Positions 23,123-63,200 of a stretch of 64,000 nucleotides of DNA are shown here, in pieces (within the stretch, counting starts at the first letter, position 1; the number at the start of each line of letters is the position of its first letter). The DNA lies in contig OZ024762.1 in NCBI GenBank assembly GCA_964016885.1, positions 29,016,001-29,080,000 on the forward strand, read 5' to 3'. The position numbers were made by a program, and so were the translations under genes. The notes under the pieces were generated by a model. That model worked only from the letters and a program-made list of their open reading frames with translations, searched no databases and was not told the origin of the DNA. Source of the stretch: Eledone cirrhosa. Lineage: Eukaryota.

Positions 23123-23220
23123 GCAACTTTCAGTGGATAATGTTCCAATTTCCTCTCTTTGGGATTAAATTTTGATTTTGATTAACATTTTTTCTAAGTT
23201 GTTTTCAAGCATTTTATAAA

Positions 23221-38074: not shown

Positions 38075-38296
38075 CACTTCTCATTTCAGAGAAAGTTTCG
38101 GTATTTTTTGGCAAATCTAAGGAACCCTTTTATAAATCAATATGTACAACCAAACCTTTGAGCTGTTCAGGGGATGTAAACGCTTGGTATATTTCTATAA
38201 AAGGAGAGGGTACCTGTATCGAAACATTATCATTATCAGGTCTGTTGATCTTTATTCATTCAAACTTTAGTTGTTAATCTCTACAAACTGTGACTG

Positions 38297-39295
38297 TTAA
38301 CCCTTTAGCATTTAAAGCGACTGTATCTGGCCAGAATTCTCTCACCTCTTTCTGTTCAAACTGGCTGTAACCAGCCGTTCATATTCATGTTAAGATAATT
38401 ATTTCTACTTTAGGCACAAGACCAGCAATTACCCAGTGCATTACTCAGATCGTAAAGGGCCGTAACTCTATGCTGGAAAGCATGGCGTCCGACCCTCCAC
38501 CGATACTGCCAACCCACCGCGCTTATTAATGTTAAGATAATGTTCTCAAAATAGATAATATCAAAATCTAATATATTCAATATTATGTTTCTACTTTTGG
38601 GGGCACAAGGCCAGCAATTACCCCAGTGTATTACTGGTACTTTATTTTATCGACCCCCGTAAGGATGAATGGCAAAGTTATCCTCGACGGGATTTGAACT
38701 CAGACCATAATATTAGGTGAGATAATTATGTGAGACTGGCAGTAATCGGTAGAGTGTCAGACATCATGTTTACGGCCCTTTATATTCTGAGTTCAAATCC
38801 CGCCGAGGTTAACTTTGCCTTTCATCCTTACATGGGTCGATAAAATAAAGTACCAGTAATGCACTGGAGGTAATTGCTGGATTGGACTGGCAGTAATCCG
38901 TAGAGCATCAGACACCATGTTTTGCAGCATAGAATTATGGCCCTTTACGTTCTGAGTTCAAATCCTGCTGAAGTTAGCTTTGCCTTTCATTCTTACGGAG
39001 GTCGATAAAATAAAGTACCAGTAATGCACTGGGGGTAATTGCTGGCTGGCCTTGTGCCAAAAGTAGAAACAATTATTATTATTGGATTGGCAGTAATCCG
39101 TAGAGTGTCAGACACCATGCTTTGCAGCATAGAGTTATGGCCCTTTACGTTCTGATTTCAAACCCGCCAAGGTTTGCCTTTCATTCTTATGGGGGGGGGG
39201 GGGTCAATAAGATAAAGTACCAGTAATGCACTGAGGTAATTCAGCAATTACCCCTGTGTATTACTGGTACCTTGTGCCAAATAGTAGAAACAATT
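38297..39295. mobile_element. piggyBac-type MITE fragment overrun by a SINE cluster (two minus-strand copies, three head-to-tail plus-strand copies)
   Basis: TTAACCCTTTAGC start; repeated GGCAGTAATC..GTTCAAATCC..GTACCAGTAATGCAC units. Confidence 0.75.
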
Positions 39296-41883: not shown

Positions 41884-42112
41884 TTAACCCTTTAGCATTT
41901 ACATTACTCCATATCTAATATTACATTTTTGTGGTAAAGGCTTTATCTTACATAATTATCTCACATAATATCAAATCTATGAGATTTTGATATTATATAT
42001 TTTGAGAACAATAACTTCACATAAGTATGAGCAGCCTGTTATGGCTGGTTTGAACAGAAAGATGTGAGAGAATTCTGGCCGGATATGGCCAGTTTAAATG
42101 CTAAAGGGTTAA
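41884..42112 (+). mobile_element. Intact piggyBac-type MITE inserted into a SINE; serves as the empty-target reference
   Basis: TIR CCCTTTAGCATTTA / TAAATGCTAAAGGG with TTAA duplicated on both sides. Confidence 0.9.
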
Positions 42113-42408
42113 CATAGCTCTCAGGGAGATTCAGCATGACACAGAGTGTGACAAGGCTGACCCTTTGAATTACAGGTACAACTCATTTTTGCCAGCTGAG
42201 TGAACTGGAAAAATATGAAATAAAGTGTCTTGCTCAAGGACACAACACTCCTCTGGTAAACAAACTCATGACCTTACGATTGTGAGGCGAATACTCTAAA
42301 CACAGAGCCACGCATCTTAGTTTATGATAAAATGTTTATAACTATCTTAAAACCTTCTATCCTAACTTTATGTAAGAACATTTGTTAAGTTATGTTTTAA
42401 CTCTTTAG

Positions 42409-42696
42409 CATTTACATTACTCTATATATACTATTGTATTTTCACAGTAAAGGCTTTACCTCACATAATATCTCACATAACATTTACATTACTCTATATA
42501 TACTATTGTATTGTCACAGTAAAGGCTTTACCTCACATAATATCTCACATAACATTTACATTACTCTATATATACTATTGTATTTTCACAGTAAAGGCTT
42601 TACCTCACATAATATCTCACATAACATTTACATTACTCTATATATACTCTTGTATTGTCACAGTAAAGGCTTTACCTCACATAATATCTCACATAA
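42409..42696 (+). repeat. 4 x 72-bp array of the MITE target segment
   Basis: Units start at 42409, 42481, 42553 and 42625. Confidence 0.97.
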
Positions 42697-42886
42697 CATC
42701 TCGTATACGAGAGACGTGTGTTGACGTGTGTGAACAAGCTCGGCTACCGATTAATTTTGATTAATTTTTTTATACTGTAATATACGTTAACCCCTTGCCT
42801 TGGTCGTCAAACCTTGAGTTTATTTATTTTCGCCCCTTTTTGGGGCGAATTTTCCAGTTAAAAACTTTTACGGCAAACTAATAGAA

Positions 42887-44608
42887 ATGGACGGAATTTT
42901 CACATCTCATCCTAACGTGAAAGCCACGCCCCCTAAGAAAGGTGATACAGAGAAGCTAGAAGCACAAGGCTCTAAGTCTTCCCTCCTCACTTCTGCAAAA
43001 GAAACATGGAACACGGAATTAAAAGAAAAATTTGTAAAAATGGGTGAAAACCCAGAAAGTCACATAAACGCAGACAAAAACAACAACGACAATAACAGCA
43101 ATAGTCACAACACCAACCAAGGAAAAAATAACGATAACACCAAACAAAGCGAACCCACTACTGGTGCCTCCTTTGCACAGGCGGTCCGGAAAACACAAAC
43201 CTGCAAGCAACTGGACATTACAACTCTGAGAGAAAAGATGAAGGAAGCGAAACAGTATGTAACTTTCAAAGAAGGAGGAGACTTCACAATCACCTCCCCA
43301 CAAGAAATCAAAAGAGACACGACGCTAAGAACGATATCTTTCAGAACAATTTCTAACATAACAAGGAAACCAACTCAATTATCCCAAAAAGAGATTGAGC
43401 TGGTCCTAAAAAATGTGTGGAGTGATATATCGTTCATACAAAAAGGGCCACTCTATGGGAATATAACGGTCCTAATGAAGGATCAATTGACGGCCAGGAA
43501 ATACTCTGTGGCGCCAATTGTTTCCAAGCTACATACATTTTTCCCCACATATTTAGGGAAAAGAACGCAGAAGATAAGGGTCTCCGGAATCCGGCCAAAT
43601 GCATGCATTTCCTGGGTACTAACAGGATTTTTAGAAGACGAGGACGGAATCCTTTCAGTAGGAGAAGTCACCACAGACGTTTTCGGCGGTTTGAGCGTGG
43701 AGGTTCTGGGCCAAATGAGACCAGAACGAATAGCTAGAATACCACAGAGGGTGTCCCTCGATGGAGAAACATTTATATATATTTCAGCCGAGGGTAGGAG
43801 GCCCATATGTTACTACTGTTCAAGCAGGGGTCATCTAAGGGCTGCTTGTCCTCAATTGACAAAAAAAAAGGCTCTTTTGCCTACACCCCACACACCACCA
43901 CCGCCACCACCACCACCACCACAACAACAACAAAAATAACACGGAAAAATAACACAAGACACGGCCCCACCCAAAACAACTCCCAAAACACACACAAATA
44001 CAACAAAACCCCAAAATACACCACTACCCGACAGCACGGACGAGGACCCAGCTGAAACGGCACCTAGTGACGAAGAGGGGGAACCCTTCCAACCTGTAAA
44101 AAGGAAAACAAGAAAGCACCACTCGAACATAAACGAAACAAACACACAACCACCAACAAAAACAAAACAAACAGAACAAACAAAATCCGCCCCGACCCAA
44201 AACATAACACATACAACAAAACGTAAGCACACACAAGAACAACAAACAAACACAACACAAATAAAACAGTATACATACATTAACACAAATAACAAAGAAC
44301 TCGTAAAAACAATACACAAAGACCCTTTGGTGGAAACTGAAGGGCAATTCTTTGCAAGCGCGGCCAACAAACCGCATTTAAAAATGATAAGACTCCCAAT
44401 GGACACCTATGCAAAACTAAGAGAGAACTTTCCTGAGGACGTGGGGAAAACATGTACTCGACCCTATAACCGCGTCCTCTTGAAACGTTTCCCCACCCAC
44501 ACCTCACCAAACACCCCCACTCCACCACAGAACAACACCCCACCAAACAACCCCTCCAATACGCCCATGGATATTGTGCAACCTGCTCCTCAGGAGCCGA
44601 ACAGGTAG
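42887..44608 (+). pseudogene. Tx1 ORF1, copy 1, with a nonsense codon
   Basis: TAA at 43937-43939 where copy 2 has CAA; zinc knuckle CYYCSSRGHLRAAC. Confidence 0.9.
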
Positions 44609-44629
44609 GTCCTTCCTCTTTTAACCAAC

Positions 44630-47600
44630 ATGGTTGATATAAGAGTTGGGTGTATGAATGTACGCGGCCTGGGACTGTCTTGGAAACAAGGCAAACTTTT
44701 AAACGATCTCAGGTCGCATAGAATGGACGTAATGGCTATTTGCGAGTCCAGGATCAGCAGCGAGCACCAACTGGCGCCCCTCTTCGACGACTTTGAGATC
44801 TTCGCATCTCTCTGTCAACCGGAGGGTGGGGGTGGAGTTGTCGTTCTGCTGCGAAAACACCTGGGCCTCGCCATACAGAAGGTGCACCTGGACCCGGAGG
44901 GTCGACTGGTGGTTTTAGACGTCGGCAGTAGTGAAAGTGGAGCCCTTAGACTAATAGCTGTGTACGCCCCTTTTTGGGCAGCACGGCCGGAATACTTCCA
45001 ACGTCTGGAAACTTTTCTGGGATCGTCCCGCTCCTTGCTTTTAGTGGGGGACTGGAATGGTATCCTGGATGCACGTTGGGACTATGTAGGGGCATGTGCC
45101 AATAGAGGGGGGTGTAAAAGCCTCAAAAGGTTAATCGGCCGATTTGACCTGGCCGATAGATATCGACTAGATTTTCCGACTGTACCACTATGGACGTGGA
45201 CCAATCGCAGTGGAACATCTAGGTCGTACCTAGATAGGGTCCTAGTTAGAGAGAAGGATTGGGACACATTTAGCTGTCCAAAAATGTTCATGGTTGACTA
45301 TTCGGATCACAAGTTAGTGACCTGCATAGCCAACCTTGATAGAACCCATAGACAGGGACCCGGTTACTGGAAGCTGAACTTGTCCTTACCGAGAAGCAAA
45401 GCTTACAGTAAACGGATTAGCACGTTAGTTAAGCAGAGTTTGACAGGGGCAATTGTCAACAACAGGTGGTGGAGCTCTCTTAAGAGAGCAATTAGAATAG
45501 AATCGATAGGTTTTAGTCAGGAATTAGCAAGGGATAGGAACAAGACGGAAAGGGAATTAGTAGATAGAGTAGAAGAGGCGATTAGGAGTGGCAATGTAGC
45601 CGGCGTGCTGGCATCAAGAATGGCCTTAGACCAGTTCTTTGAGGTGAAGCATGAAGGCTGCGTTGTCAGGAGTAAAATACGTGCTCTGGGTAATGAGGGA
45701 GCCAAAGCTGTGAGCTGGGCCCGAGTGACAGAGGCAAAAAGTGGGAACAAGTCCACGATTCGGTCTTTGAAGGACCAGGATGGGCGTGTGATCCTTGAAC
45801 CTGGGCAGATGTGTGCGGCCTTTCAGCGGCACTTTGCACGACTGTTCGAGAGGGGCGGCGCGCCGGGTGAGACTATGGATTTCAATCCATACCTCGACGG
45901 TCTGCCGCACCTCTCGGACGCGGAGGCGAAGTCCTACGAAAGGACGATTTCAGCTGCTGAGATAGGGGCGGCGCTGAGCCAATGCGGCAAACGCAAATCC
46001 CCGGGTGTCGATGGTCTACCATACGAGCTATATGTAGCGATGCCGGACTTGTTCTCCGATATCCTCGAAGCGGTCTACTGCAACTGGCAGCAGAACGGGA
46101 GAATTCCCAGTTCTGTGACCAAGGGCGTAGTTACGCTGGTGAGGAAGGATGAGAACAAGGGGGATGACATAAGTAACTTCAGGCCCATAACTCTGCTAAA
46201 TACAGAGTTAAAGATTTTGGCCAAGGTGTTAGCGAAGAGGTTGGCGCTTGTCGTTGGAAACCTGGTGGGAGAAGCGCAGACATGCGCAATCCCGTCCAGG
46301 TCCATTCACGACAATCTCCCCCTTATGCGATACATCATAGAGAGGGTAGGGAATGAACCCGGCTTTGGTGGGGCCCTGATCAACTTGGATCAATCTAAAG
46401 CTTTCGATAGGGTTGACCATCGTTACCTGGATGCGGTGCTCGCGGCAGCAGGCTTCGGACCCGTTTTCAGGGGTTGGATTGCTGCGATGCACAGCAGCAA
46501 CGTCTGCTCAAGGGTCAAGGTGAACGGCCACCTCTCGGAGCCGTTCCAAATCATGCGATCCATCCGACAGGGATGCCCTCTCTCCCCCCTACTGTATGTG
46601 CTGGCTCTTGAGCCACTACTGCGGAAGTTGGAGCGGTTGCAGGGCATCCCTTTGGAACCGGGATTGCAGAAAGCGGCGTCGGCCTACGCCGATGACGTGA
46701 CAGTAATGGTGTCGAAAACCTCGCAAATCGGTGAGATCGGCACCTTACTGGAGGAATATGAAAGGTTTACAGGAGCCAAGCTGAACCGGGACAAGTCCGT
46801 CGGTTTGCAACTCGGAACATGGAGAGGCAAACCGATGCCCTCCAACGACGTCGTCGGACGCTGGTTCGGACCAGACCTCCAGGTGGAGAAAAACTGGAAC
46901 GAGGTAACGGCCAGGGTGTTTGCACTCACCCAGAAGTGGGCCCAGTGCAAACTATCCCTGAAAGGTCGAGCGGAGGTGGCGAATACTTATATAGCATCCG
47001 TCATCTACTACCGCTTGACCGTCGTGCCTTGCCCAGTGAAAAGACTCGCCAAAATGGAGTGCGCGCTGTTCCAATTTCTTTGGAACAAGCGGACCCCTTT
47101 GGTGAGGAGATCCATCTGCTGTCAACACCCTTCGAAAGGAGGGCTGGGGATGCCGTGGCTACAGATGCGTAAACACGCATTAAGGCTACGGCACCTCCAG
47201 GTATTCCTCACCGGTCAACCGGTGTGGGCCCCGTTTGTGAGGCGAGCCTTTCCCAGACTCGTCTCGCTCACCGAGCTGCAATCCTGGGTCAAGCAAAGAC
47301 CGAGAAAAGTGGGCGACTGGCACATTGAATGTGCCCAGGTGCTCACGGCCCTCTGGAAAGCGGACCCGGCAATCAGTGGAGACTCCACGTCGACATTCTA
47401 TAGTGGGTTGGTACGCAGCAGGTGCGACCATGCTCTCGGAGAAGCTCTAGGCATGGAGGAAGATGAACTGGCCAGTCTGTTCGGTAGGACGTTTGGCCCT
47501 GGACCGATGGACAACTTCCAAAAGTCCCTGGCTTGGCAGTGCTACCGAGGGGCTCTACCCGTTCGAGACAAGCTCCACAGGCATGGGAGCCTGGGTAGAG

Positions 47601-48034
47601 ATCCTTTGAATAAGATCTGTCCGAGATGCGTGCATGATGACGAAACCGTTGCGCACGCATTCGTACACTGCCCAGGCATTGCTGACCTGTGGGGCTATGT
47701 GGAACGACTACTGTCGAGGGTGGGACCAATCCGGTTGACCACCGAGTCTATTGTCACGATCAAACCGCCTCCCCCTTTCAAAAACAAAGGAGAGGCGGTT
47801 TTTCTCTGTGTGGTAGCCATGGCTAAAGAAGTTGTATGGTGGACGAGGCTGAAAGGGCTGAGGTCAGACACCTTTCTCTCCGGCCAACAACTGGTCCCCT
47901 TTTTCAAATACCATTTTAAAAGAAGGATCAGAATGGAGAGAGAGGTGCTCTACCCCAGCAAGTTTTATGAAAGGTGGGTGAAAGTAGGGAGAATGGCCAG
48001 AGTGAATGGGTCTTCTCTCTATATCAGCCTGTAG
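44630..48034 (+). CDS. Tx1 ORF2, copy 1 (APE endonuclease, RT, C-terminal zinc finger), with an 11-aa deletion
   Basis: GDWN, YLDR, SDH, PGYWKLN, FRPITLLN, KAFDRV, RQGCPLSP, YADD, GGLG and CPRC..H..C motifs. Confidence 0.92.
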   Translation: MVDIRVGCMNVRGLGLSWKQGKLLNDLRSHRMDVMAICESRISSEHQLAPLFDDFEIFASLCQPEGGGGVVVLLRKHLGLAIQKVHLDPEGRLVVLDVGSSESGALRLIAVYAPFWAARPEYFQRLETFLGSSRSLLLVGDWNGILDARWDYVGACANRGGCKSLKRLIGRFDLADRYRLDFPTVPLWTWTNRSGTSRSYLDRVLVREKDWDTFSCPKMFMVDYSDHKLVTCIANLDRTHRQGPGYWKLNLSLPRSKAYSKRISTLVKQSLTGAIVNNRWWSSLKRAIRIESIGFSQELARDRNKTERELVDRVEEAIRSGNVAGVLASRMALDQFFEVKHEGCVVRSKIRALGNEGAKAVSWARVTEAKSGNKSTIRSLKDQDGRVILEPGQMCAAFQRHFARLFERGGAPGETMDFNPYLDGLPHLSDAEAKSYERTISAAEIGAALSQCGKRKSPGVDGLPYELYVAMPDLFSDILEAVYCNWQQNGRIPSSVTKGVVTLVRKDENKGDDISNFRPITLLNTELKILAKVLAKRLALVVGNLVGEAQTCAIPSRSIHDNLPLMRYIIERVGNEPGFGGALINLDQSKAFDRVDHRYLDAVLAAAGFGPVFRGWIAAMHSSNVCSRVKVNGHLSEPFQIMRSIRQGCPLSPLLYVLALEPLLRKLERLQGIPLEPGLQKAASAYADDVTVMVSKTSQIGEIGTLLEEYERFTGAKLNRDKSVGLQLGTWRGKPMPSNDVVGRWFGPDLQVEKNWNEVTARVFALTQKWAQCKLSLKGRAEVANTYIASVIYYRLTVVPCPVKRLAKMECALFQFLWNKRTPLVRRSICCQHPSKGGLGMPWLQMRKHALRLRHLQVFLTGQPVWAPFVRRAFPRLVSLTELQSWVKQRPRKVGDWHIECAQVLTALWKADPAISGDSTSTFYSGLVRSRCDHALGEALGMEEDELASLFGRTFGPGPMDNFQKSLAWQCYRGALPVRDKLHRHGSLGRDPLNKICPRCVHDDETVAHAFVHCPGIADLWGYVERLLSRVGPIRLTTESIVTIKPPPPFKNKGEAVFLCVVAMAKEVVWWTRLKGLRSDTFLSGQQLVPFFKYHFKRRIRMEREVLYPSKFYERWVKVGRMARVNGSSLYISL

Positions 48035-48271
48035 GTGAAAGAAGAGGAAAAAGAGGAGACGAGGGAAGCACCTACTCTTTGTGCTCCTGAGGAGAGGGGT
48101 TGCACATTTTTTCCGGGGTGTGTGCGACCCATGTTAATGCCCCCTCCCTATTGAGGACTTCGTTTGTTGTTGTTATTTCATTGTTATATTTTTGTACTCG
48201 TTAATTATATGTAAACTTCCCCCCTTGTATCTGTCCCTACCTTTTGTGCCCTAGTGGCAAATAAAGAAACC

Positions 48272-48693
48272 ACTCTATATATACTATTGTATTGTCACAG
48301 TAAAGGCTTTACCTCACATAATATCTCACATAACATTTACATTACTCTATATATACTATTGTATTGTCACAGTAAAGGCTTTACCTCACATAATATCTCA
48401 CATAACATTTACATTACTCTATATATACTATTGTATTGTCACAGTAAAGGCTTTACCTCACATAATATCTCACATAACATTTACATTACTCTATATATAC
48501 TATTGTATTGTCACAGTAAAGGTTTTACCTCACATAATACCTCACATAGCATTTACATTACTCTATATATACTATTGTATTGTCACAGTAAAGGCTTTAC
48601 CTCACATAATACCTCACATAGCATTTACATTACTCTATATATACTATTGTATTGTCACAGTAAAGGCTTTACCTCACATAATATCTCACATAA
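48272..48693 (+). repeat. 62-bp partial unit plus 5 x 72-bp array of the MITE target segment, between the two Tx1 copies
   Basis: Full units start at 48334, 48406, 48478, 48550 and 48622. Confidence 0.97.
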
Positions 48694-48907
48694 CATCTCG
48701 TATACGAGAGACGTGTGTTGACGTGTGTGAACAAGCTCGGCTACCGAGTCGGATTTACTTACTCAAAAAGTGAGTTTTGATTAATTTTTTTATACTGTAA
48801 TATACGTTAACCCCTTGCCTTGGTCGTCAAACTTTGAGTTTATTTATTTTCGCCCCTTTTTGGGGCGAATTTTCCAGTTAAAAATTTATTACGGCAAACT
48901 AATAGAA

Positions 48908-50650
48908 ATGGACGGAATTTTCACATCTCATCCTAACGTGAAAGCCACGCCCCCTAAGAAAGGTGATACAGAGAAGCTAGAAGCACAAGGCTCTAAGTCT
49001 TCCCTCCTGACTTCTGCAAAAGAAACATGGAACACGGAATTAAAAGAAAAATTTGTAAAAATGGGTGAAAACCCAGAAAGTCACATAAACGCAGACAAAA
49101 ACAACAACGACAATAACAGCAATAGTCACAACACCAACCAAGGAAAAAATAACGATAACACCAAACAAAGCGAACCCACTACTGGTGCCTCCTTTGCACA
49201 GGCGGTCCGGAAAACACAAACCTGCAAGCAACTGGACATTACAACTCTGAGAGAAAAGATGAAGGAAGCGAAACAGTATGTAACTTTCAAAGAAGGAGGA
49301 GACTTCACAATCACCTCCCCACAAGAAATCAAAAGAGACACGACGCTAAGAACGATATCTTTCAGAACAATTTCCAACATAACAAGGAAACCAACTCAAT
49401 TATCCCAAAAAGAGATTGAGCTGGTCCTAAAAAATGTGTGGAGTGATATATCGTTCATACAAAAAGGGCCACTCTATGGGAATATAACGGTCCTAATGAA
49501 GGATCAATTGACGGCCAGGAAATACTCTGTGGCACCAATTGTTTCCAAGCTACATACATTTTTCCCCACATATTTAGGGAAAAGAACGCAGAAGATAAGG
49601 GTCTCCGGAATCCGGCCAAATGCATGCATTTCCTGGGTACTAACAGGATTTTTAGAAGACGAGGACGGAATCCTCTCAGTAGGAGAAGTCACCACAGACG
49701 TTTTCGGCGGTTTGAGCGTGGAGGTTCTGGTCCAAATGAGACCAGAACGAATAGCTAGAATACCACAGAGGGTGTCCCTCGATGGAGAAACATTTATATA
49801 TATTTCAGCCGAGGGTAGGAGGCCCATATGTTACTACTGTTCAAGCAGGGGTCATCTAAGGGCTGCTTGTCCTCAATTGACAAAAAAAAAGGCTCTTTTG
49901 CCTACACCCCACACACCACCACCGCCACCACCACCACCACCACCACCTCCACCACCACCACCACAACAACAACAAAAACAACAGGGAAAAATAACACAAG
50001 ACACGGCCCCACCCAAAACAACTCCCAAAACACACACAAATACAACAAAACCCCAAAATACACCACTACCCGACAGCACGGACGAGGACCCAGCGGAAAC
50101 GGCACCTAGTGACGAAGAGGGGGAACCCTTCCAACCTGTAAAAAGGAAAAAAAGAAAGCACCACTCGAACATAAACGAAACAAACACACAACCACCAACA
50201 AAAACAAAACAAACAGAACAAACAAAATCCGCCCCACCCCAAAACATAACACATACAACAAAACGTAAGCACACACAAGAACAACAAACAAACACAACAC
50301 AAATAAAACAGTATACATACATTAACACAAATAACAAAGAACTAGTAAAAACAATACACAAAGACCCTTTGGTGGAAACTGAAGGACAATTCTTTGCAAG
50401 CGCGGCCAACAAACCGCATTTAAAAATGATAAGACTCCCAATGGACACCTATGCAAAACTAAGAGAGAACTTTCCTGAGGACGTGGGGAAAACATGTACT
50501 CGACCCTATAACCGCGTCCTCTTGAAACGTTTCCCCACCCACACCTCACCAAACACCCCCACTCCACCACAGAACAACACCCCACCAAACAACCCCTCCA
50601 ATACGCCCATGGATATTGTGCAACCTGCTCCTCAGGAGCCGAACAGGTAG
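48908..50650 (+). CDS. Tx1 ORF1 (580 aa from ATG; CCHC zinc knuckle, Pro/Thr-rich tail)
   Basis: Open frame; SFAQAV motif, CYYCSSRGHLRAAC and a basic KRKKRK stretch. Confidence 0.92.
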   Translation: MDGIFTSHPNVKATPPKKGDTEKLEAQGSKSSLLTSAKETWNTELKEKFVKMGENPESHINADKNNNDNNSNSHNTNQGKNNDNTKQSEPTTGASFAQAVRKTQTCKQLDITTLREKMKEAKQYVTFKEGGDFTITSPQEIKRDTTLRTISFRTISNITRKPTQLSQKEIELVLKNVWSDISFIQKGPLYGNITVLMKDQLTARKYSVAPIVSKLHTFFPTYLGKRTQKIRVSGIRPNACISWVLTGFLEDEDGILSVGEVTTDVFGGLSVEVLVQMRPERIARIPQRVSLDGETFIYISAEGRRPICYYCSSRGHLRAACPQLTKKKALLPTPHTPPPPPPPPPPPPPPPPQQQQKQQGKITQDTAPPKTTPKTHTNTTKPQNTPLPDSTDEDPAETAPSDEEGEPFQPVKRKKRKHHSNINETNTQPPTKTKQTEQTKSAPPQNITHTTKRKHTQEQQTNTTQIKQYTYINTNNKELVKTIHKDPLVETEGQFFASAANKPHLKMIRLPMDTYAKLRENFPEDVGKTCTRPYNRVLLKRFPTHTSPNTPTPPQNNTPPNNPSNTPMDIVQPAPQEPNR

Positions 50651-50671
50651 GTCCTTCCTCTTTTAACCAAC

Positions 50672-53600
50672 ATGGCTGATATAAGAGTTGGGTGTCTGAA
50701 TGTACGTGGCCTGGGACTGTCTTGGAAACAAGGCAAACTTTTAAACGATCTCAGGTCGCATAGAATGGATGTAATGGCTATTTGCGAGTCCAGGATCAGC
50801 AGCGAGCACCAACTGGCGCCCCTCTTCGACGACTTTGAGATCTTCGCATCTCTCTGTCAACCGGGGGGTGGGGGTGGAGTTGTCGTTCTGCTGCGAAAAC
50901 ACCTGGGCCTCGCCATACAGAAGGTGCACCTGGACCCGGAGGGTCGACTGGTGGTTTTAGACGTCGGCAGTAGTGAAAGTGGAGCCCTTAGACTAATAGC
51001 TGTGTACGCCCCTTTTTGGGCAGCGCGGCCGGAATACTTCCAACGTCTGGAAACTTTTCTGGGAACGTCCCGCTCCTTGCTTTTAGTGGGGGACTGGAAT
51101 GGTATCCTGGATGCACGTTGGGACTATGTAGGGGCATGTGCCAATAGAGGGGGGTGTAAAAGCCTCAAAAGGTTAATCGGCCGATTTGACCTGGCCGATA
51201 GATATCGACTAGATTTTCCGACTGTACCACTATGGACGTGGACCAATCGCAGTGGAACATCTAGGTCGTACCTAGATAGGGTCCTAGTTAGAGAGAACGA
51301 TAGGGACACATTTAGCTGTCCAAAAATGTTCATGGTTGACTATTCGGATCACAAGTTAGTGACCTGCATAGCCAACCTTGATAGAACCCATAGACAGGGA
51401 CCCGGTTACTGGAAGCTGAACTTGTCCTTACCGAGAAGCAAAGCTTACAGTAAACGGATTAGCACGTTAGTTAAGCAGAGTTTGACAGGGGCAATTGTCA
51501 ACAACAGGTGGTGGAGCTCTCTTAAGAGAGCAATTAGAATAGAATCGATAGGTTTTAGTCAGGAATTAGCAAGGGATAGGAACAAGACGGAAAGGGAATT
51601 AGTAGATAGAGTAGAAGAGGCGATTAGGAGTGGCAATGTAGCCGGCGTGCTGGCATCAAGAATGGCCTTAGACCAGTTCTTTGAGGTGAAGCATGAAGGC
51701 TGCGTTGTCAGGAGTAAAATACGTGCTCTGGGTAATGAGGGAGCCAAAGCTGTGAGCTGGGCCCGAGTGACAGAGGCAAAAAGTGGGAACAAGTCCACGA
51801 TTCGGTCTTTGAAGGACCAGGATGGGCGTGTGATCCTTGAACCTGGGCAGATGTGTGCGGCCTTTCAGCGGCACTTTGCACGACTGTTCGAGAGGGGCGG
51901 CGCGCCGGGTGAGACTATGGATTTCAATCCATACCTCGACGGTCTGCCGCGCCTCTCGGACGCGGAGGCGAAGTCCTGCGAAAGGACGATTTCAGCTGCT
52001 GAGATAGGGGCGGCGCTGAGCCAATGCGGCAAACGCAAATCCCCGGGTCTCGATGGTCTACCATACGAGCTATATGTAGCGATGCCGGACTTGTTCTCCG
52101 ATATCCTCGAAGCGGTCTACTGCAACTGGCAGCAGAACGGGAGAATTCCCAGTTCTGTGACCAAGGGCGTAGTTACGCTGGTGAGGAAGGATGAGAACAA
52201 GGGGGATGACATAAGTAACTTCAGGCCCATAACTCTGCTAAATACAGAGTTAAAGATTTTGGCCAAGGTGTTAGCGAAGAGGTTGGCGCTTGTCGTTGGA
52301 AACCTGGTGGGAGAAGCGCAGACATGCGCAATCCCGTCCAGGTCCATTCACGACAATCTCCACCTTATGCGATACATCATAGAGAGGGTAGGGAATGAAC
52401 CCGGCTTTGGTGGGGCCCTGATCAACTTGGATCAATCTAAAGCTTTCGATAGGGTTGACCATCGTTACCTGGATGCGGTGCTCGCGGCGGCAGGCTTCGG
52501 ACCCGTTTTCAGGGGTTGGATTGCTGCGATGCACAGCAGCAACGTCTGCTCAAGGGTCAAGGTGAACGGCCACCTCTCGGAGCCGTTCCAAATCATGCGA
52601 TCCATCCGACAGGGATGCCCTCTCTCCTCCCTACTGTATGTGCTGGCTCTTGAGCCACTACTGCGGAAGTTGGAGCGGTTGCAGGGCATCCCTTTGGAAC
52701 CGGGATTGCAGAAAGCGGCGTCGGCCTACGCCGATGACGTGACAGTAATGGTGTCGAAAACCTCGCAAATCGGTGAGATCGGCACCTTACTGGAGGAATA
52801 TGAAAGGTTTACAGGAGCCAAGCTGAACCGGGACAAGTCCGTCGGTTTGCAACTCGGAACATGGAGAGGCAAACTGATGCCCTCCAACGACGTCATCGGA
52901 CGCTGGACGGAGGGCCCGGTGAAGCTGCTTGGGGTCTGGTTCGGACCAGACCTCCAGGTGGAGAAAAACTGGAACGAGGTAACGGCCAGGGTGTTTGCAC
53001 TCACCCAGAAGTGGGCCCAGTGCAAACTATCCCTGAAAGGTCGAGCGGAGGTGGCGAATACTTATATAGCATCCGTCATCTACTACCGCTTGACCGTCGT
53101 GCCTTGCCCAGTGAAAAGACTCGCCAAAATGGAGTGCGCGCTGTTCCAATTTCTTTGGAACAAGCGGACCCCTTTGGTGAGGAGATCCATCTGCTGTCAA
53201 CACCCTTCGAAAGGAGGGCTGGGGATGCCGTGGCTACAGATGCGTAAACACGCATTAAGGCTACGGCACCTCCAGGTATTCCTCACCGGTCAACCGGTGT
53301 GGGCCCCGTTTGTGAGGCGAGCCTTTCCCAGACTCGTCTCGCTCACCGAGCTGCAATCCTGGGTCAAGCAAAGACCGAGAAAAGTGGGCGACTGGCACAT
53401 TGAATGTGCCCAGGCGCTCACGGCCCTCTGGAAAGCGGACCCGGCAATCAGTGGAGACTCCACCTCGACATTCTATAGAGGGTTGGTACGCAGCAGGTGC
53501 GACGATGCTCTCGGAGAAGCTCTAGGCATGGAGGAAGATGAACTGGCCAGTCTGTTCGGTAGGACGTTTGGCCCTGGACCGATGGACAACTTCCAAAAGT

Positions 53601-54109
53601 CCCTGGCTTGGCAGTGCTACCGAGGGGCTCTACCCGTTCGAGACAAGCTCCACAGGCATGGGAGCCTGGGTAGAGATCCTTTGAATAAGATCTGTCCGAG
53701 ATGCGTGCATGATGACGAAACCGTTGCGCACGCATTCGTACACTGCCCAGGCATTGCTGACCTGTGGGGCTATGTGGAACGACTACTGTCGAGGGTGGGA
53801 CCAATCCGGTTGACCACCGAGTCCATTGTCACGATCAAACCGCCTCCCCCTTTCAAAAACGAAGGAGAGGCGGTTTTTCTCTGTGTGGTAGCCATGGCTA
53901 AAGAAGTTGTATGGTGGACGAGGCTGAAAGGGCTGAGGTCAGACACCTTTCTCTCCGGCCAACAACTGGTCCCCTTTTTCAAATACCATTTTAAAAGAAG
54001 GATCAGAATGGAGAGAGAGGTGCTCTACCCCAGCAAGTTTTATGAAAGGTGGGTGAAAGTAGGGAGAATGGCCAGAGTGAATGGGTCTTCTCTCTATATC
54101 AGCCTGTAG
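50672..54109 (+). CDS. Tx1 ORF2 (1145 aa; APE, RT, zinc finger)
   Basis: Full motif set as in copy 1, and it retains WTEGPVKLLGVWF. Confidence 0.95.
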   Translation: MADIRVGCLNVRGLGLSWKQGKLLNDLRSHRMDVMAICESRISSEHQLAPLFDDFEIFASLCQPGGGGGVVVLLRKHLGLAIQKVHLDPEGRLVVLDVGSSESGALRLIAVYAPFWAARPEYFQRLETFLGTSRSLLLVGDWNGILDARWDYVGACANRGGCKSLKRLIGRFDLADRYRLDFPTVPLWTWTNRSGTSRSYLDRVLVRENDRDTFSCPKMFMVDYSDHKLVTCIANLDRTHRQGPGYWKLNLSLPRSKAYSKRISTLVKQSLTGAIVNNRWWSSLKRAIRIESIGFSQELARDRNKTERELVDRVEEAIRSGNVAGVLASRMALDQFFEVKHEGCVVRSKIRALGNEGAKAVSWARVTEAKSGNKSTIRSLKDQDGRVILEPGQMCAAFQRHFARLFERGGAPGETMDFNPYLDGLPRLSDAEAKSCERTISAAEIGAALSQCGKRKSPGLDGLPYELYVAMPDLFSDILEAVYCNWQQNGRIPSSVTKGVVTLVRKDENKGDDISNFRPITLLNTELKILAKVLAKRLALVVGNLVGEAQTCAIPSRSIHDNLHLMRYIIERVGNEPGFGGALINLDQSKAFDRVDHRYLDAVLAAAGFGPVFRGWIAAMHSSNVCSRVKVNGHLSEPFQIMRSIRQGCPLSSLLYVLALEPLLRKLERLQGIPLEPGLQKAASAYADDVTVMVSKTSQIGEIGTLLEEYERFTGAKLNRDKSVGLQLGTWRGKLMPSNDVIGRWTEGPVKLLGVWFGPDLQVEKNWNEVTARVFALTQKWAQCKLSLKGRAEVANTYIASVIYYRLTVVPCPVKRLAKMECALFQFLWNKRTPLVRRSICCQHPSKGGLGMPWLQMRKHALRLRHLQVFLTGQPVWAPFVRRAFPRLVSLTELQSWVKQRPRKVGDWHIECAQALTALWKADPAISGDSTSTFYRGLVRSRCDDALGEALGMEEDELASLFGRTFGPGPMDNFQKSLAWQCYRGALPVRDKLHRHGSLGRDPLNKICPRCVHDDETVAHAFVHCPGIADLWGYVERLLSRVGPIRLTTESIVTIKPPPPFKNEGEAVFLCVVAMAKEVVWWTRLKGLRSDTFLSGQQLVPFFKYHFKRRIRMEREVLYPSKFYERWVKVGRMARVNGSSLYISL

Positions 54110-54570
54110 GTGAAAGAAGAGGAAAAAGCGGAGACGAGGGAAGCACCTACTCTTTGTGCTCCTGAGGAGAAGGGTTACACATTTTTTCCGGTGTGTGTGC
54201 GACCCATGTTAATGCCCCCTCCCTATTGAGGACTTCGTTTGTTGTTGTTATTTCATTGTTATATTTTTGTACTCGTTAATTATATGTAAACTTCCCCCCT
54301 TGTATCTGTCCCTACCTTTTGTGCCCTAGTGGCAAATAAAGAAACCACTCTATATATACTATTATATTTTCACAGTAAAGACTTTACTTCACATAATATC
54401 TCACATAATATCGAATCTATGAGATTTTGATATTATTTATTTTGAGAACAATACCATAACATAAGTATGAATGACCAGTAACGGTCGATTTGAACAGAAA
54501 GAGGAGATAGAATTCTAGCCGGATACGGCCGGTTTAAATGCTAAAGGGTTAACTGATTTGTTTATTAATT

Positions 54571-55053: not shown

Positions 55054-55062
55054 TACTTATCG

Positions 55063-56960
55063 CAGAAACTGGTGCAGTAATACATCAACCCCAGTGCAGT
55101 AATACATCAACCCCAGTGCAGAAACTGGTGCAGTAATACATCAACCCCAGTGCAGTAATACATCAACCCCAGTGCAGAAACTGGTGCAGTAATACATCAA
55201 CCCCAGTGCAGTAACTGGTGCAGTAATACGTCAACCCCAGTGCAGTAATACATCAACCCCAGGGCAGAAACTGGTGCAGTAATACATCAACCCCAGTGCA
55301 GAAACTGGTGCAGTAATACATCAACCCAGTGCAGAAACTGGTGCAGTAATACATCAACCCCAGAGCAGAAACTGGTGCAGTAATACATCAACCCCAGTGC
55401 AGAAACTGGTGCAGTAATACATCAACCCCAGTGCAGTAATACATCAACCCCAGTGCAGTAATACACCAACCCCAGTGCATAAACTGGTGCAGTAATACAT
55501 CAACCCCAGTGCAGAAACTGGTGCAGTAATACATCAACCCCAGTGCAGTAATACATCAACCCCAGTGCAGTAATACATCAACCCCAGTGCAGTAATACAT
55601 CAACCCCAGTGCAGTAATACATCAACCCCAGTGCAGTAATACATCAACCCCAGTGCAGAAACTGGTGCAGTAATACATCAACCCCAGTGCAGAAACTGGT
55701 GCAGTAATACATCAACCCCAGTGCAGTAATACATCAACCCCAGTGCAGAAACTGGTGCAGTAATACATCAACCCCAGTGCAGAAACTGGTGCAGTAATAC
55801 ATCAACCCCAGTGCAGTAATACATCAACCCCAGTGCAGTAATACATCAACCCCAGTGCAGAAACTGGTGCAGTAATACATCAACCCCAGTGCAGTAACTG
55901 GTGCAGTAATACATCAACCCCAGTGCAGTAACTGGTGCAGTAATACATCAACCCCAGTGCAGAAACTGGTGCAGTAATACATCAACCCCAGTGCAGTAAT
56001 ACATCAACCCCAGTGCAGTAACTGGTGCAGTAATACATCAACCCCACTGCAGAAACTGGTGCAGTAATACATCAACCCCAGTGCAGAAACTGGTGCAGTA
56101 ATACATCAACCCCAGTGCAGTAATACATCAACCCCAGTGCAGAAACTGGTGCAGTAATACATCAACCCCAGTGCAGTAATACATCAACCCTAGTGCAGAA
56201 ACTGGTGCAGTAATACATCAACCCCAGTGCAGTAACTGGTGCAGTAATACATCAACCCCAGTGCAGTAACTGGTGCAGTAATACATCAACCCCAGTGCAG
56301 TAACTGGTGCAGTAATACATCAACCCCAGTGCAGTAATACATCAACCCCAGTGCAGAAACTGGTGCAGTAATACATCAACCCCAGTGCAGTAACTGGTGC
56401 AGTAATACATCAACCCCAGTGCAGTAATACATCAACCCCAGTGCAGAAACTGGTGCAGTAATACATCAACCCCAGTGCAGTAACTGGTGCAGTAATACAT
56501 CAACCCCAGTGCAGAAACTGGTGCAGTAATACATCAACCCCAGTGCAGAAACTGGTGCAGTAATACATCAACCCCAGTGCAGTAACTGGTGCAGTAATAC
56601 ATCAACCCCAGTGCAGTAATACATCAACCCCAGTGCAGTAATACATCAACCCCAGTGCAGAAACTGGTGCAGTAATACATCAACCCCAGTGCAGTAACTG
56701 GTGCAGTAATACATCAACCCCAGTGCAGTAATACATCAACCCCAGTGCAGTAATACATCAACCCCAGTGCAGAAACTGGTGCAGTAATACATCAACCCCA
56801 GTGCAGTAACTGGTGCAGTAATACATCAACCCCAGTGCAGTAACTGGTGCAGTAATACATCAACCCCAGTGCAGTAATACATCAACCCCAGTGCAGTAAT
56901 ACATCAACCCCAGTGCAGAAACTGGTGCAGTAATACATCAACCCCAGGGCAGAAACTACT
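55063..56960. repeat. Two-module minisatellite: 22-bp GTGCAGTAATACATCAACCCCA with or without 12-bp GTGCAG(A/T)AACTG
   Basis: Irregular alternation of 22- and 34-bp units. Confidence 0.95.
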
Positions 56961-57239: not shown

Positions 57240-60200
57240 CTAAAGTCTGTCTTAAACCAGAAGGATGTTAGGCCGGTAGTTATCCTGGTTTCATGGTGTG
57301 AAGTGACTGAGAGTACAAGACTTCCCCCTGGACAGGACACCAGTCCATCACAGGGTTATGTTAAGTCTAAAGTCTGTCTTAAACCAGAAGGATGTTAGGC
57401 CGGTAGTTATCCTGGTTTCATGGTGTGAAGTGACTGAGAGTACAAGACTTCCCCCTGGACAGGACACCAGTCCATCACAGGGTAATGTTAAGTCTAAAGT
57501 CTGTCTTAAGCGAGAAGAATGTTAGGCCAGTACGTATCCTGGTTTCATGGTGTGAAGTGACTGAGAGTACAAGACTTCCCCCTGGACAGGACACCAGTCC
57601 ATCACAGGGTTATGTTAAGTCTAAAGTCTGTCTTAAACCAGAAGGATGGTAGGCCGGTAGTTATCCTGGTTTCATGGTGTGAAGTGACTGAGAGTACAAG
57701 ACTTCCTCCTGGACAGGACACCAGTCCATCACAGGGTTATGTTAAGTCTAAAGTCTGTCTTAAGCCAGAAGGATGTTAGGCCGGTACTTATCCTGGTTTC
57801 ATGGTGTGAAGTGACTGAGAGTACAAGACTTCCCCCTGGACAGGACACCAGTCCATCACAGGGTTATGTTAAGTCTAAAGTCTGTCTTAAACCAGAAAGA
57901 TGTTAGGCCGGTACTTATCCTGGTTTCATGGTGTGAAGTGACTGAGAGTACAAGACTTCCCCCTGGACAGGACACCAGTCCATCACAGGGTTATGTTAAG
58001 TCTAAAGTCTGTCTTAAACCAGAAGGATGTTAGGCCGGTACTTATCCTGGTTTCATGGTGTGAAGTGACTGAGAGTACAAGACTTCCCCCCTGGACAGAA
58101 CACCAGTCCATCACAGGGTTATGTTAAGTCTAAAGTCTGTCTTAAGCCAGAAGGATGTTAGACCGGTAGTTATCCTGGTTTCATGGTGTGAAGTGACTGA
58201 GAGTACAAGACTTCTCCCTGGACAGGACACCAGTCCATCACAGGGTTATGTTAAGTCTAAAGTCTGTCTTAAACCAGAAGGATGTTAGGCCGGTAGTTAT
58301 CCTGGTTTCATGGTGTGAAGTGACTGAGAGTATAAGACTTCCCCCTGGACAGGACACCAGTCCATCACAGGATTATATTAAGTCTAAAGTCTGTCTTAAG
58401 CCAGAAGGATGTTTGGCCGGTACTTATCCTGGTTTCATGGTGTGAAGTGACTGAGAGTACAAGACTTCCCCCTGGACAGGACACCAGTCCATCACAGGGT
58501 TATGTTAAGTCTAAAGTCTGTCTTAAACCAGAAGGATGTTAGGCCGGTAGTTATCCTTGTTTCATGCTGTGAAGTGACTGAGAGTACAAGACTTCCCCCT
58601 GGACAGGACACCAGTCCATCACAGGGTTATATTAAATCTAAAGTCTGTCATAAGCCAGAAGGATGTTAGGCTGGTACTTATCCTGGTTTCATGGTGTGAA
58701 GTGACTGAGAGTACAAGACTTCCCCCTGGACAGGACACCACCCCATCACAGGGTTATGTTAAGTCTAAAGTCTGTCTTAAACCAGAAGGATGTTAGGCCG
58801 GTAGTTATCCTTGTTTCATGGTGTGAAGTGACTGAGAGTACAAGACTTCCCCCTGGACAGGACACCAGTCCATCACAGGGTTATATTAAGTCTAAAGTCT
58901 GTCTTAAGCCAGAAGGATGTTAGGCTGGTACTTATCCTGGTTTCATGGTGTGAAGTGACTGAGAGTACAAGACTTCCCCCTGGACAGGACACCAGTCCAT
59001 CACAGGGTTATATTAAGTCTAAAGTCTGTCTTAAGCCAGAAGGATGTTAGGCCGGTAGTTATCCTGGTTTCATGGTGTGAAGTGACTGAGAGTACAAGAC
59101 TTCCCCCTGGACAGGACACCAGTCCATCACAGGGTTATATTAAGTCTAAAGTCTGTCTTAAGCCAGAAGGATGTTAGGCCGATACTTATCCTGGTTTCAT
59201 GGTGTGAAGTGACTGAGAGTACAAGACTTCCCCCTGGACAGGACACCAGTCCATCACAGGGTTATATTAAGTCTAAAGTCTGTCTTAAGCCAGAAGGATG
59301 TTAGGCCGGTACTTATCCTGGTTTCATGGTGTGAAGTGACTGAGAGTACAAGACTTCCCCCTGGACAGGACACCAGTCCATCACAGGGTAATGTTAAGTC
59401 TAAAGTCTGTCTTAAGCCAGAAGGATGTTAGGCCGGTACTTATCCTGGTTTCATGGTGTGAAGTGACTGAGAGTACAAGACTTCCCCCTGGACAGGACAC
59501 CAGTCCATCACAGGGTTATGTTAAGTCTAAAGTCTGTCTTAAACCAGAAGGATGTTAGGCCGGTACTTATCCTGGTTTCATGGTGTGAAGTGACTGAGAG
59601 TACAAGACTTCCTCCTGGACAGGACACCAGTCCATCACAGGGTTATGTTAAGTCTAAAGTCTGTCTTAAACCAGAAGGATGTTAGGCCGGTACTTATCCT
59701 GGTTTCATGGTGTGAAGTGACTGAGAGTACAAGACTTCCTCCTGGACAGGACACCAGTCCATCACAGGGTTATGTTAAGTCTAAAGTCTGTCTTAAACCA
59801 GAAGGATGTTAGGCCGGTACTTATCCTGGTTTCATGGTGTGAAGTGACTGAGAGTACAAGACTTCCTCCTGGACAGGACACCAGTCCATCACAGGGTTAT
59901 GTTAAGTCTAAAGTCTGTCTTAAACCAGAAGGATGTTAGGCCGGTACTTATCCTGGTTTCATGGTGTGAAGTGACTGAGAGTACAAGACTTCCCCCCTGG
60001 ACAGGACACCAGTCCATCACAGGGTAATGTTAAGTCTAAAGTCTGTCTTAAACCAGAAGGATGTTAGGCCGGTAGTTATCCTGGTTTCATGGTGTGAAGT
60101 GACTGAGAGTACAAGACTCCCCCTGGACAGGACACCAGTACATCACAGGGTTATGTTAAGTCTAAACTCTGTCTTAAACCAGAAGGATGTTAAGCTGGTA

Positions 60201-63200
60201 GTTATCCTGGTTTCATGGTGTGAAGTGACTGAGAGTACAAGACTTCCCCCTGGACAGAACACCAGTCCATCACAGGGTTATGTTAAGTCTAAAGTCTGTC
60301 TTAAACCAGAAGGATGTTAGGCCGGTACTTATCCTGGTTTCATGGTGTGAAGTGACTGAGAGTACAAGACTTCCCCCCTGGACAGAACACCAGTCCATCA
60401 CAGGGTTATGTTAAGTCTAAAGTCTGTCTTAAGCCAGAAGGATGTTAGACCGGTAGTTATCCTGGTTTCATGGTGTGAAGTGACTGAGAGTACAAGACTT
60501 CTCCCTGGACAGGACACCAGTCCATCACAGGGTTATGTTAAGTCTAAAGTCTGTCTTAAACCAGAAGGATGTTAGGCCGGTAGTTATCCTGGTTTCATGG
60601 TGTGAAGTGACTGAGAGTATAAGACTTCCCCCTGGACAGGACACCAGTCCATCACAGGATTATATTAAGTCTAAAGTCTGTCTTAAGCCAGAAGGATGTT
60701 TGGCCGGTACTTATCCTGGTTTCATGGTGTGAAGTGACTGAGAGTACAAGACTTCCCCCTGGACAGGACACCAGTCCATCACAGGGTTATGTTAAGTCTA
60801 AAGTCTGTCTTAAACCAGAAGGATGTTAGGCCGGTAGTTATCCTTGTTTCATGCTGTGAAGTGACTGAGAGTACAAGACTTCCCCCTGGACAGGACACCA
60901 GTCCATCACAGGGTTATATTAAATCTAAAGTCTGTCATAAGCCAGAAGGATGTTAGGCTGGTACTTATCCTGGTTTCATGGTGTGAAGTGACTGAGAGTA
61001 CAAGACTTCCCCCTGGACAGGACACCACCCCATCACAGGGTTATGTTAAGTCTAAAGTCTGTCTTAAACCAGAAGGATGTTAGGCCGGTAGTTATCCTTG
61101 TTTCATGGTGTGAAGTGACTGAGAGTACAAGACTTCCCCCTGGACAGGACACCAGTCCATCACAGGGTTATATTAAATCTAAAGTCTGTCTTAAGCCAGA
61201 AGGATGTTAGGCTGGTACTTATCCTGGTTTCATGGTGTGAAGTGACTGAGAGTACAAGACTTCCCCCTGGACAGGACACCAGTCCATCACAGGGTTATAT
61301 TAAGTCTAAAGTCTGTCTTAAGCCAGAAGGATGTTAGGCCGGTACTTATCCTGGTTTCATGGTGTGAAGTGACTGAGAGTACAAGACTTCCCCCTGGACA
61401 GGACACCAGTCCATCACAGGGTTATATTAAGTCTAAAGTCTGTCTTAAGCCAGAAGGATGTTAGGCCGATACTTATCCTGGTTTCATGGTGTGAAGTGAC
61501 TGAGAGTACAAGACTTCCCCCTGGACAGGACACCAGTCCATCACAGGGTTATATTAAGTCTAAAGTCTGTCTTAAACCAGAAGGATGTTAGGCCGGTAGT
61601 TATCCTTGTTTCATGCTGTGAAGTGACTGAGAGTACAAGACTTCCCCCTGGACAGGACACCAGTCCATCACAGGGTTATATTAAATCTAAAGTCTGTCAT
61701 AAGCCAGAAGGATGTTAGGCCGGTAGTTATCCTGGTTTCATGGTGTGAAGTGACTGAGAGTACAAGACTTCCCCCTGGACAGGACACCAGTCCATCACAG
61801 GATTATATTAAGTCTAAAGTCTGTCTTAAGCCAGAAGGATGTTTGGCCGGTACTTATCCTGGTTTCATGGTGTGAAGTGACTGAGAGTACAAGACTTCCC
61901 CCTGGACAGGACACCAGTCCATCACAGGGTTATGTTAAGTCTAAAGTCTGTCTTAAACCAGAAGGATGTTAGGCCGGTAGTTATCCTTGTTTCATGCTGT
62001 GAAGTGACTGAGAGTACAAGACTTCCCCCTGGACAGGACACCAGTCCATCACAGGGTTATATTAAATCTAAAGTCTGTCATAAGCCAGAAGGATGTTAGG
62101 CTGGTACTTATCCTGGTTTCATGGTGTGAAGTGACTGAGAGTACAAGACTTCCCCCTGGACAGGACACCACCCCATCACAGGGTTATGTTAAGTCTAAAG
62201 TCTGTCTTAAACCAGAAGGATGTTAGGCCGGTAGTTATCCTTGTTTCATGGTGTGAAGTGACTGAGAGTACAAGACTTCCCCCTGGACAGGACACCAGTC
62301 CATCACAGGGTTATATTAAATCTAAAGTCTGTCTTAAGCCAGAAGGATGTTAGGCTGGTACTTATCCTGGTTTCATGGTGTGAAGTGACTGAGAGTACAA
62401 GACTTCCCCCTGGACAGGACACCAGTCCATCACAGGGTTATATTAAGTCTAAAGTCTGTCTTAAGCCAGAAGGATGTTAGGCCGGTACTTATCCTGGTTT
62501 CATGGTGTGAAGTGACTGAGAGTACAAGACTTCCCCCTGGACAGGACACCAGTCCATCACAGGGTTATATTAAGTCTAAAGTCTGTCTTAAGCCAGAAGG
62601 ATGTTAGGCCGATACTTATCCTGGTTTCATGGTGTGAAGTGACTGAGAGTACAAGACTTCCCCCTGGACAGGACACCAGTCCATCACAGGGTTATGTTAA
62701 GTCTAAAGTCTGTCTTAAACCAGAAGGATGTTAGGCCGGTAGTTATCCTGGTTTCATGGTGTGAAGTGACTGAGAGTATAAGACTTCCCCCTGGACAGGA
62801 CACCAGTCCATCACAGGATTATATTAAGTCTAAAGTCTGTCTTAAGCCAGAAGGATGTTTGGCCGGTACTTATCCTGGTTTCATGGTGTGAAGTGACTGA
62901 GAGTACAAGACTTCCCCCTGGACAGGACACCAGTCCATCACAGGGTTATGTTAAGTCTAAAGTCTGTCTTAAACCAGAAGGATGTTAGGCCGGTAGTTAT
63001 CCTTGTTTCATGCTGTGAAGTGACTGAGAGTACAAGACTTCCCCCTGGACAGGACACCAGTCCATCACAGGGTTATATTAAATCTAAAGTCTGTCATAAG
63101 CCAGAAGGATGTTAGGCTGGTACTTATCCTGGTTTCATGGTGTGAAGTGACTGAGAGTACAAGACTTCCCCCTGGACAGGACACCACCCCATCACAGGGT

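Follow-up and report, generated by a model that had tools for sequence, protein, structure and literature searches.

A Tx1-type LINE that inserts at one exact base of a piggyBac MITE in Eledone cirrhosa and may seed its own target arrays

In a 64-kb window of the Eledone cirrhosa genome (contig C23:29,016,001-29,080,000 of the 3.0-Gb assembly), two copies of a Tx1-type long interspersed nuclear element (LINE) lie head to tail inside one MITE (miniature inverted-repeat transposable element) of the piggyBac type. Positions given below are those within this window, genome-wide counts refer to the same assembly, and all features of the locus are on the plus strand. We divided the MITE into L (TTAA plus 8 bp), s (the 10-nt CATTTACATT), U (62 bp, ACTC...CTCACATAA) and R (the remaining 140 bp including the right terminal inverted repeat, TIR), and counted unit positions from the first base of s as 0. 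The order is L (sU)x4, element A, U (sU)x5, element B, U R. The locus starts with the left TTAA target duplication, read directly in the sequence (42397-42400), and the 18-bp left end of the MITE (42401-42418), which includes s and a 14-bp TIR. Four 72-bp units of s plus U, with the insertion site s/U in each (42409-42696; a slash marks a junction), lead up to copy A (42697-48271); a 62-bp U and five more 72-bp units (48272-48693) separate it from copy B (48694-54346). Then follow the host MITE's own U (54347-54408, with 3 differences from the first upstream U), the remainder of the MITE with its right TIR (54409-54548) and the right TTAA (54549-54552). The left TIR, CTCTTTAGCATTTA, differs by a C>T change from the right end, CCCTTTAGCATTTA. 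A and B have identical 3' ends (GAAACC/ACTCTATATATAC) and identical 5' ends (CTCACATAA/CATCTCG). A first-pass annotation had described this layout, the common 3' base and 5' junction, the insertion site within each 72-bp unit and the C>T change; we rechecked every coordinate, and the description holds.

Copy B has two intact open reading frames (ORFs). ORF1 (48908-50650) encodes 580 aa with one CCHC knuckle, CYYCSSRGHLRAAC, which was read by eye and has no Pfam match. ORF2 (50672-54109) encodes 1145 aa with apurinic-type endonuclease (APE), reverse transcriptase (RT) and zf-RVT domains (Pfam Exo_endo_phos, RVT_1 and zf-RVT), and the catalytic N, E, Y, D/N, D and H positions are all present. 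The 3' untranslated region (UTR) of 237 nt terminates in AATAAAGAAACC without poly(A), and AATAAA is located 6 nt before the 3' end of the LINE. Human L1 ORF2p was the closest relative of solved structure, with an E value of 6.5e-53, compared to 3e-23 for R2. Judged from its predicted architecture (N-terminal APE, RT, C-terminal zinc motif), the element is a non-LTR retrotransposon of the L1/Tx1 group. The Tx1 label rests on this architecture and on general knowledge of the clade, in which a CCHC-bearing ORF1, a 3' end without poly(A) and target specificity go together; the LINE has all three. No named Tx1 protein was present among 89 homologues, 8 clusters or the atlas matches, and relatives at 40% identity exist. 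Copy A is likely defective, with a premature stop at 43937-43939 in ORF1 (42887-44608) and a 33-bp in-frame deletion in ORF2 (44630-48034). Between A and B there are 44 substitutions in 5,593 aligned bases (0.8%) and four internal indels. Among 75 unbroken full-length copies, 21 of which pass a length threshold for two open frames, the nearest copy to B lies on another contig (0.12%), and A, at 0.81%, takes only rank 44 in B's list of neighbours. By these distances A and B are two separate insertions, and both an assembly artefact and a local tandem duplication of one insertion are excluded at this locus.

The annotation had asked for the flanks of other copies and had named unrelated flanks as the outcome that would speak against site specificity. 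No such outcome was seen: the 30 best 3' matches all continue into ACTCTATA, and the 30 best 5' matches are all preceded by CTCACATAACA. Genome-wide, the exact 3' 22-mer of the LINE continues with ACT at 260 sites and with C, G or T at none (0 for a reversed-pattern control), and in fetched regions 102/102 3' ends, including four end variants, join ACTC or ACTG. The 5' 20-mer occurs 305 times, preceded by CACATAACA in 296 cases, so most copies are full-length. Copies differ from each other by a median of 1.2%. The LINE inserts at one exact base, CATTTACATT/ACTC, which lies 18 bp into an old MITE of the piggyBac type, and the genome holds about 300 young, mostly full-length copies.

The target has the properties of a true piggyBac MITE, as first proposed: a TTAA duplication, a TIR beginning with CCC and no ORF. 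Of 30 fetched loci with piggyBac transposase (PF13843), 20 carry ends matching the MITE on both sides, and several have open frames of 561 aa. A young autonomous piggyBac of 2.57 kb with a 561-aa transposase is present in near-identical copies on several chromosomes (L248-L256 and others). The MITE left end shows two mismatches to the autonomous end, and the match stops exactly at the LINE insertion site; the site is therefore specific to the MITE. The head-to-tail arrangement also recurs, with six copies at C1:4.22-4.26 Mb and five at C10:40.72-40.75 Mb. In these stacks, copies 3-5 of C1a, those of C10a and copies 1-2 of C1b are mutually nearest, and by this measure part of the tandem copies are local duplicates, not fresh insertions.

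The 5' side of the LINE was analysed with the polymorphism of the target units. Five 5'-truncated copies, one of them in a plain MITE, have target-site duplications (TSDs) of 2, 6, 9, 10 and 16 bp; a sixth starts directly after CTCACATAACAT and may be internally deleted. A TSD of 62 bp or of several units, as suggested by L056/L006 and L060/L023, was rejected as a rule: the U upstream of a copy is usually not identical to the one downstream, and the TSDs of truncated copies measure 2-16 bp; at single loci a multi-unit TSD is indistinguishable from a pre-existing higher-order repeat. For 94 copies with both ends, we asked whether the 5'-adjacent unit keeps variants found in at least 60% of the locus's other units. 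It did so in 24/47 cells at positions 10-47 and in 0/12 at positions 48-71 (Fisher p=8e-4). As controls at positions 48-71, the next unit up kept them in 4/7 cells and the first downstream unit in 5/13 (p=0.012).

Individual loci show the same boundary. T50 is present in 27/27 other units of L165 and in 10/10 of L147 but absent from the 5'-adjacent unit of each, in which host variants persist as far as position 37 and 45, respectively; at L155, 22/24 units are TT-type and the adjacent unit is T-type. L147 and L165, in which all other units carry the variant, rule out that the upstream 20 nt are clean because perfect targets were selected. The last 12 nt of the 5'-adjacent unit diverge by 0.1%, versus 3.0% in inner units; only 2 changes are found at positions 52-71 in 84 adjacent 72-mers; and the 60-bp unit type accounts for 1/92 adjacent units versus 106/1,071 inner units. 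At L153, two full units were brought in with the LINE into a host with a 43-bp array. Since host variants are kept only to about position 47 and family sequence lies beyond, the last 20-26 nt appear to belong to the element. The variant data thus make it very probable that the LINE carries a target-derived 5' leader of 20-26 nt, as in R2, with uniform 5' junctions and upstream target replaced by element sequence. For A, the putative leader would occupy 42671-42696, with a start between 42671 and 42677 set by the conversion tract in the 94 copies; for B, it would be 48668-48693. Base pairing between the leader and two GTGTG motifs in the 5' UTR is predicted, within a three-stem hairpin that begins at unit position 52 (48674-48730 in B). 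The predicted hairpin has a z of -2.47, versus -0.22 with the leader removed. No ribozyme was matched in Rfam at E of 5 or below over 48200-49000, where the fold is a predicted hairpin only.

In twelve fetched copies that retain the 5' end, internal stretches of between about 80 bp and 3.8 kb are deleted, frequently with overlaps of a few bases (L078, L089, L145, L146, L161, L167, L191, L193, L195, L196, L198, L200); such copies outnumber the five clearly 5'-truncated ones. L161 and L188, 40 kb apart and probably a local duplication, have in common a stretch resembling an LTR element, immediately upstream of U and the LINE.

The target itself is multiplied far beyond this locus. Exact counts gave 12,589 MITE left ends, 34,972 junctions between units and about 300 LINEs; with a slightly different pattern, 1,083 MITE left ends lead into a junction. 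The annotation had regarded the target as multiplied beside each insertion. The multiplication is real, but the arrays are not mere headers of the LINE: they occur on both sides of it and in MITEs without any LINE, and junctions vastly outnumber elements. The window holds both states, a plain copy of the MITE without array or LINE (41884-42113) and one with a two-unit 60-bp array, also without a LINE, in which private variants are common to both units (22646-22912). In C1:36-48 Mb, 1/21 MITE ends are arrayed; in C1:0-23 Mb, 12 of the first 30 are arrayed or bear a LINE. At only 7 LINE 3' ends does the sequence continue with just one U and R. One belongs to a 43-bp truncated copy, and the other six have several units upstream.

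Arrayed MITEs do not form a subfamily. Their right parts are 84.8% identical, versus 85.2% for plain MITEs, and on a tree of the 140-bp part the arrayed state needs 36 changes (shuffled mean, 34.5), so that a separate arrayed lineage finds no support in divergence or in their scatter on this weak tree. Variants of the terminal unit are common to the preceding unit in 16/31 and 41/86 cells, where 2.9 and 11.4 are expected from other loci, and the host s variant CATTCAC reaches the first junction in 128/249 hosts, with 35 cases in hosts without the variant. As judged by these variants, the arrays are shown to have arisen in place from each host MITE.

The junction end of the units looks imported, to judge from its sequence type. 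Terminal units are T-type, TT-type or single-motif in 19, 16 and 20 arrays (10, 20 and 15 in plain MITEs), and the preceding unit is of the leader type T in 46/55 arrays, including 18/20 with single-motif and 12/16 with TT hosts. Genome-wide, TT is found at 855 junctions versus 24,731 for T, and at 2 of about 300 LINE 5' ends. Among 1,259 first junctions, the base is A in 1,083 (86%), G in 84, C in 48 and T in 44; hosts whose left end reads TTTAG have A at 611 junctions versus G at 75. In composition, the arrays join the 5' part of the host unit to an end of the leader type, often together with the host's s.

We propose that the LINE inserts site-specifically, carries a target-derived leader, and seeds arrays which later copies enter. 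The APE domain would nick the bottom strand at s/U, where the RT would prime. With AATAAA 6 nt from the end, the RNA would carry target sequence at its 3' end, running into ACTCTATAT, which would account for the tail-less, exact 3' junction. At the other end, the RNA would start inside the upstream unit, and the end of the cDNA would anneal to the identical CTCACATAA stretch of a unit, giving a uniform, R2-like 5' junction; such annealing via the leader would favour full-length copies and arrayed targets. Should integration abort after a few leader bases have been copied, the strand could slip back to the CAT of the host s, and repair would leave one extra s+U unit with a new U/s/U junction. 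Unequal exchange would then expand the arrays and duplicate some LINE copies. We put the whole account at roughly 0.6, and on balance we favour the element's machinery as the source of the target arrays. The further-reaching statement stands at about even odds: that an APE-type LINE built a minisatellite family of about 35,000 junctions from a dead DNA transposon, captured its target as a structured 5' leader that renders almost all insertions complete and seamless, and manufactured its own safe harbours through aborted insertions whose junctions later copies use.

Several observations weigh against this proposal. Among the 94 copies there is no full-length one flanked by a single unit both upstream and downstream; full-length copies sit in arrays, and the abort step implies leader annealing in a plain MITE. 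In 121/249 hosts, the junction lacks the host's s variant. About 14% of first junctions (those with G, C or T) fit plain microhomology slippage, the junction base follows the host left-end base (G hosts in 75/84 G cases, C hosts in 30/48 C cases), and 44 first junctions read TAT. Positions 48-59 are still common with the host in 14/59 cells (4.1 expected). As to the samples, the 140-bp tree has little power, the arrays were drawn from a set enriched for LINE-bearing loci, the leader test draws on a dozen loci with several cells per locus, which makes its cells non-independent, and the transcript start is deduced from sequence variants only.

One alternative is that the arrays are independent of the LINE. 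Slippage at the imperfect TA-N-[C/T]AT microhomology, or gap repair related to piggyBac, would create the first junction, ectopic conversion from other arrays would spread the common type, and the LINE would exploit the arrays and take its leader from them. Such an origin would accommodate junctions about 100-fold more numerous than elements, arrays without elements, the host-base and T-type junction classes and the lack of a full-length copy in a plain MITE (0/94), and tandem repeats borne by MITEs without a LINE (Xstir, miDNA4, HindIII) are described in the accessible text of PMC9659126. It accounts poorly for the 86% of first junctions (1,083/1,259) that are leader-like at a breakpoint without homology in most hosts, for the second motif in junction units of hosts that lack it (18/20), and for one breakpoint, 10 nt from the LINE site, that repeats in more than 1,000 MITEs of different types. 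We consider it rather unlikely, though the strongest of the alternatives.

Still less probable are two ways in which the arrays would spread: as micro-SINEs (short interspersed elements), with an RNA that begins in one unit and extends into the next (leader, s and U) copied in trans at a nicked MITE, or as 5' or 3' transduced units left behind after the LINE is removed by recombination between the units beside it. More than one unit was transduced at L153, the junction s is of the family rather than the host type in 121/249 hosts, and flanking direct repeats could permit precise loss of the element; against this, the host s variant was copied in 128/249 hosts, the host left-end base appears in about 11%, and variants private to the host are common to the downstream units and the terminal unit. 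The spread of a composite from a single chance insertion in an arrayed MITE, by piggyBac transposase, segmental duplication or misassembly, is largely refuted: a young intact piggyBac with matching ends does exist, and some tandem copies and the locus pair L156/L157 are local duplicates, but the MITE right parts of 54 sampled arrayed or LINE-bearing loci are on average 84.8% alike (85.2% for plain MITEs), with no pair above 95.3% that would mark identical MITE-LINE composites at different flanks, while LINEs are a median of 1.2% apart and independently truncated copies have the same 3' junction. The idea in the first-pass annotation that the outer TIRs could mobilise the composite likewise found no sign in these 54 right parts, although a matching intact piggyBac exists.

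Other features touch on the MITE or the LINE. Further pieces or copies of the MITE in the window, 73-87% identical to the copy at 41884, lie at 3807-4021, 14909-15116, 22908-23122 and 38296-38588. Elsewhere, MITEs contain arrays of other types, with 41-43-bp units that include the TIR (L153) or with inverted blocks (L230, C2:23.536-23.539 Mb). Different inserts at L018, L022/L086 and L101, with ends that resemble reversed Helitron 3' ends (hairpin plus CTAG/TTAG), enter units at one point about 15 nt past the LINE site. Arrayed MITEs and LINE copies are concentrated towards the ends of large chromosomes and on small ones; the first 100 of the 1,083 arrayed MITEs extend from C1 to where C8 begins, over half of the assembly, and the LINE ends on C1 and C2, among the matches listed, are all in the outer 31 Mb or so. 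A sister element with 69-84% nucleotide identity (L070:2265-6882, minus strand; C1:30.912-30.917 Mb) is flanked at both ends by a TACC/TCTC-type microsatellite, not by the MITE, and in sequencing run X7 a related 3' end is followed by TATC repeats; these two cases suggest target switching between microsatellite and MITE within the LINE lineage. Contigs from runs labelled as two other organisms contain a near-identical element, reaching 30 nt into U on the 5' side, together with array junctions; none spans a junction by 31 letters on each side. For the locus in the window, runs X2, X5 and X6 showed no coverage of the unique flank in a search for an empty allele. The window also includes satellites of 61 bp x 37 (23220-25480) and 127 bp x 53 (57240-64000, reaching the window end), and a 22/34-bp composite array (55062-56957).

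If the proposal is right, it describes a way for a site-specific retrotransposon to overcome its limited number of targets, and a retrotransposon-driven origin of a minisatellite family in which a single breakpoint recurs. A further bearing is on 5' joining in APE-type LINEs, a poorly understood step whose conversion tract is preserved here in about 300 near-identical copies at polymorphic targets. Because both ORFs of copy B are open, ordinary biochemistry should be applicable to this compact APE LINE, which has single-base specificity and yields mostly full-length products.

A Tx1 element aimed at a piggyBac MITE is already known in Xenopus (Tx1L). Tx1L sits in pre-existing internal repeats of about 400 bp, with a TSD of 23 bp; the LINE of Eledone cirrhosa differs in the TSDs of its truncated copies (2-16 bp), the probable leader on its full copies and arrays that are new in each MITE. 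In a literature search with Repbase and subscription papers outside its scope, neither this family nor a target-derived leader in Tx1 nor target arrays made by a LINE turned up. In the accessible text of two papers (PMC4494074, PMC1950540), Tx1L of Xenopus laevis is a Tx1-type APE LINE whose insertions occupy a specific sequence of the non-autonomous piggyBac family Tx1D; our LINE shares this type of target, in a different host, MITE and sequence. For Octopus vulgaris, the accessible text of a repeat paper (PMC13282606) presents 13 L1-Tx1 families as recently active and gives neither targets nor sequences for them; the paper's consensus library may contain this LINE family.

Crocodilian Tx1-Mar and SINEU, as far as described in the accessible part of PMC4494074, also represent Tx1 families aimed at an old, abundant non-autonomous DNA transposon (Mariner-N4_AMi), with tandem insertions; part of the SINEU-2B copies are extended at the 5' end by sequence of the target transposon, which is interpreted there as transcription started in the flank. 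Unlike our LINE, the crocodilian families prefer two regions rather than one base, and that part of the paper does not report multiplication of the target into arrays. With R2, the likeness lies at the 5' end: RNA with up to 36 nt of upstream 28S target was proposed, in the portion of PMC3774820 available, to anneal and so produce uniform 5' junctions. R2 has a restriction-like endonuclease and an HDV-like ribozyme and resides in ribosomal DNA, whereas our LINE has an APE domain, no Rfam ribozyme match and a MITE target. Tandem arrays inside non-autonomous DNA transposons are likewise familiar from Xstir in Xmix, miDNA4 and bivalve HindIII/Pearl, described in the accessible sections of PMC9659126 as born in the MITE and then amplified. 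The arrays in Eledone cirrhosa resemble these in their location but differ in that the arrayed MITEs form no clade and the junction matches the probable LINE leader, 10 nt from the insertion site.

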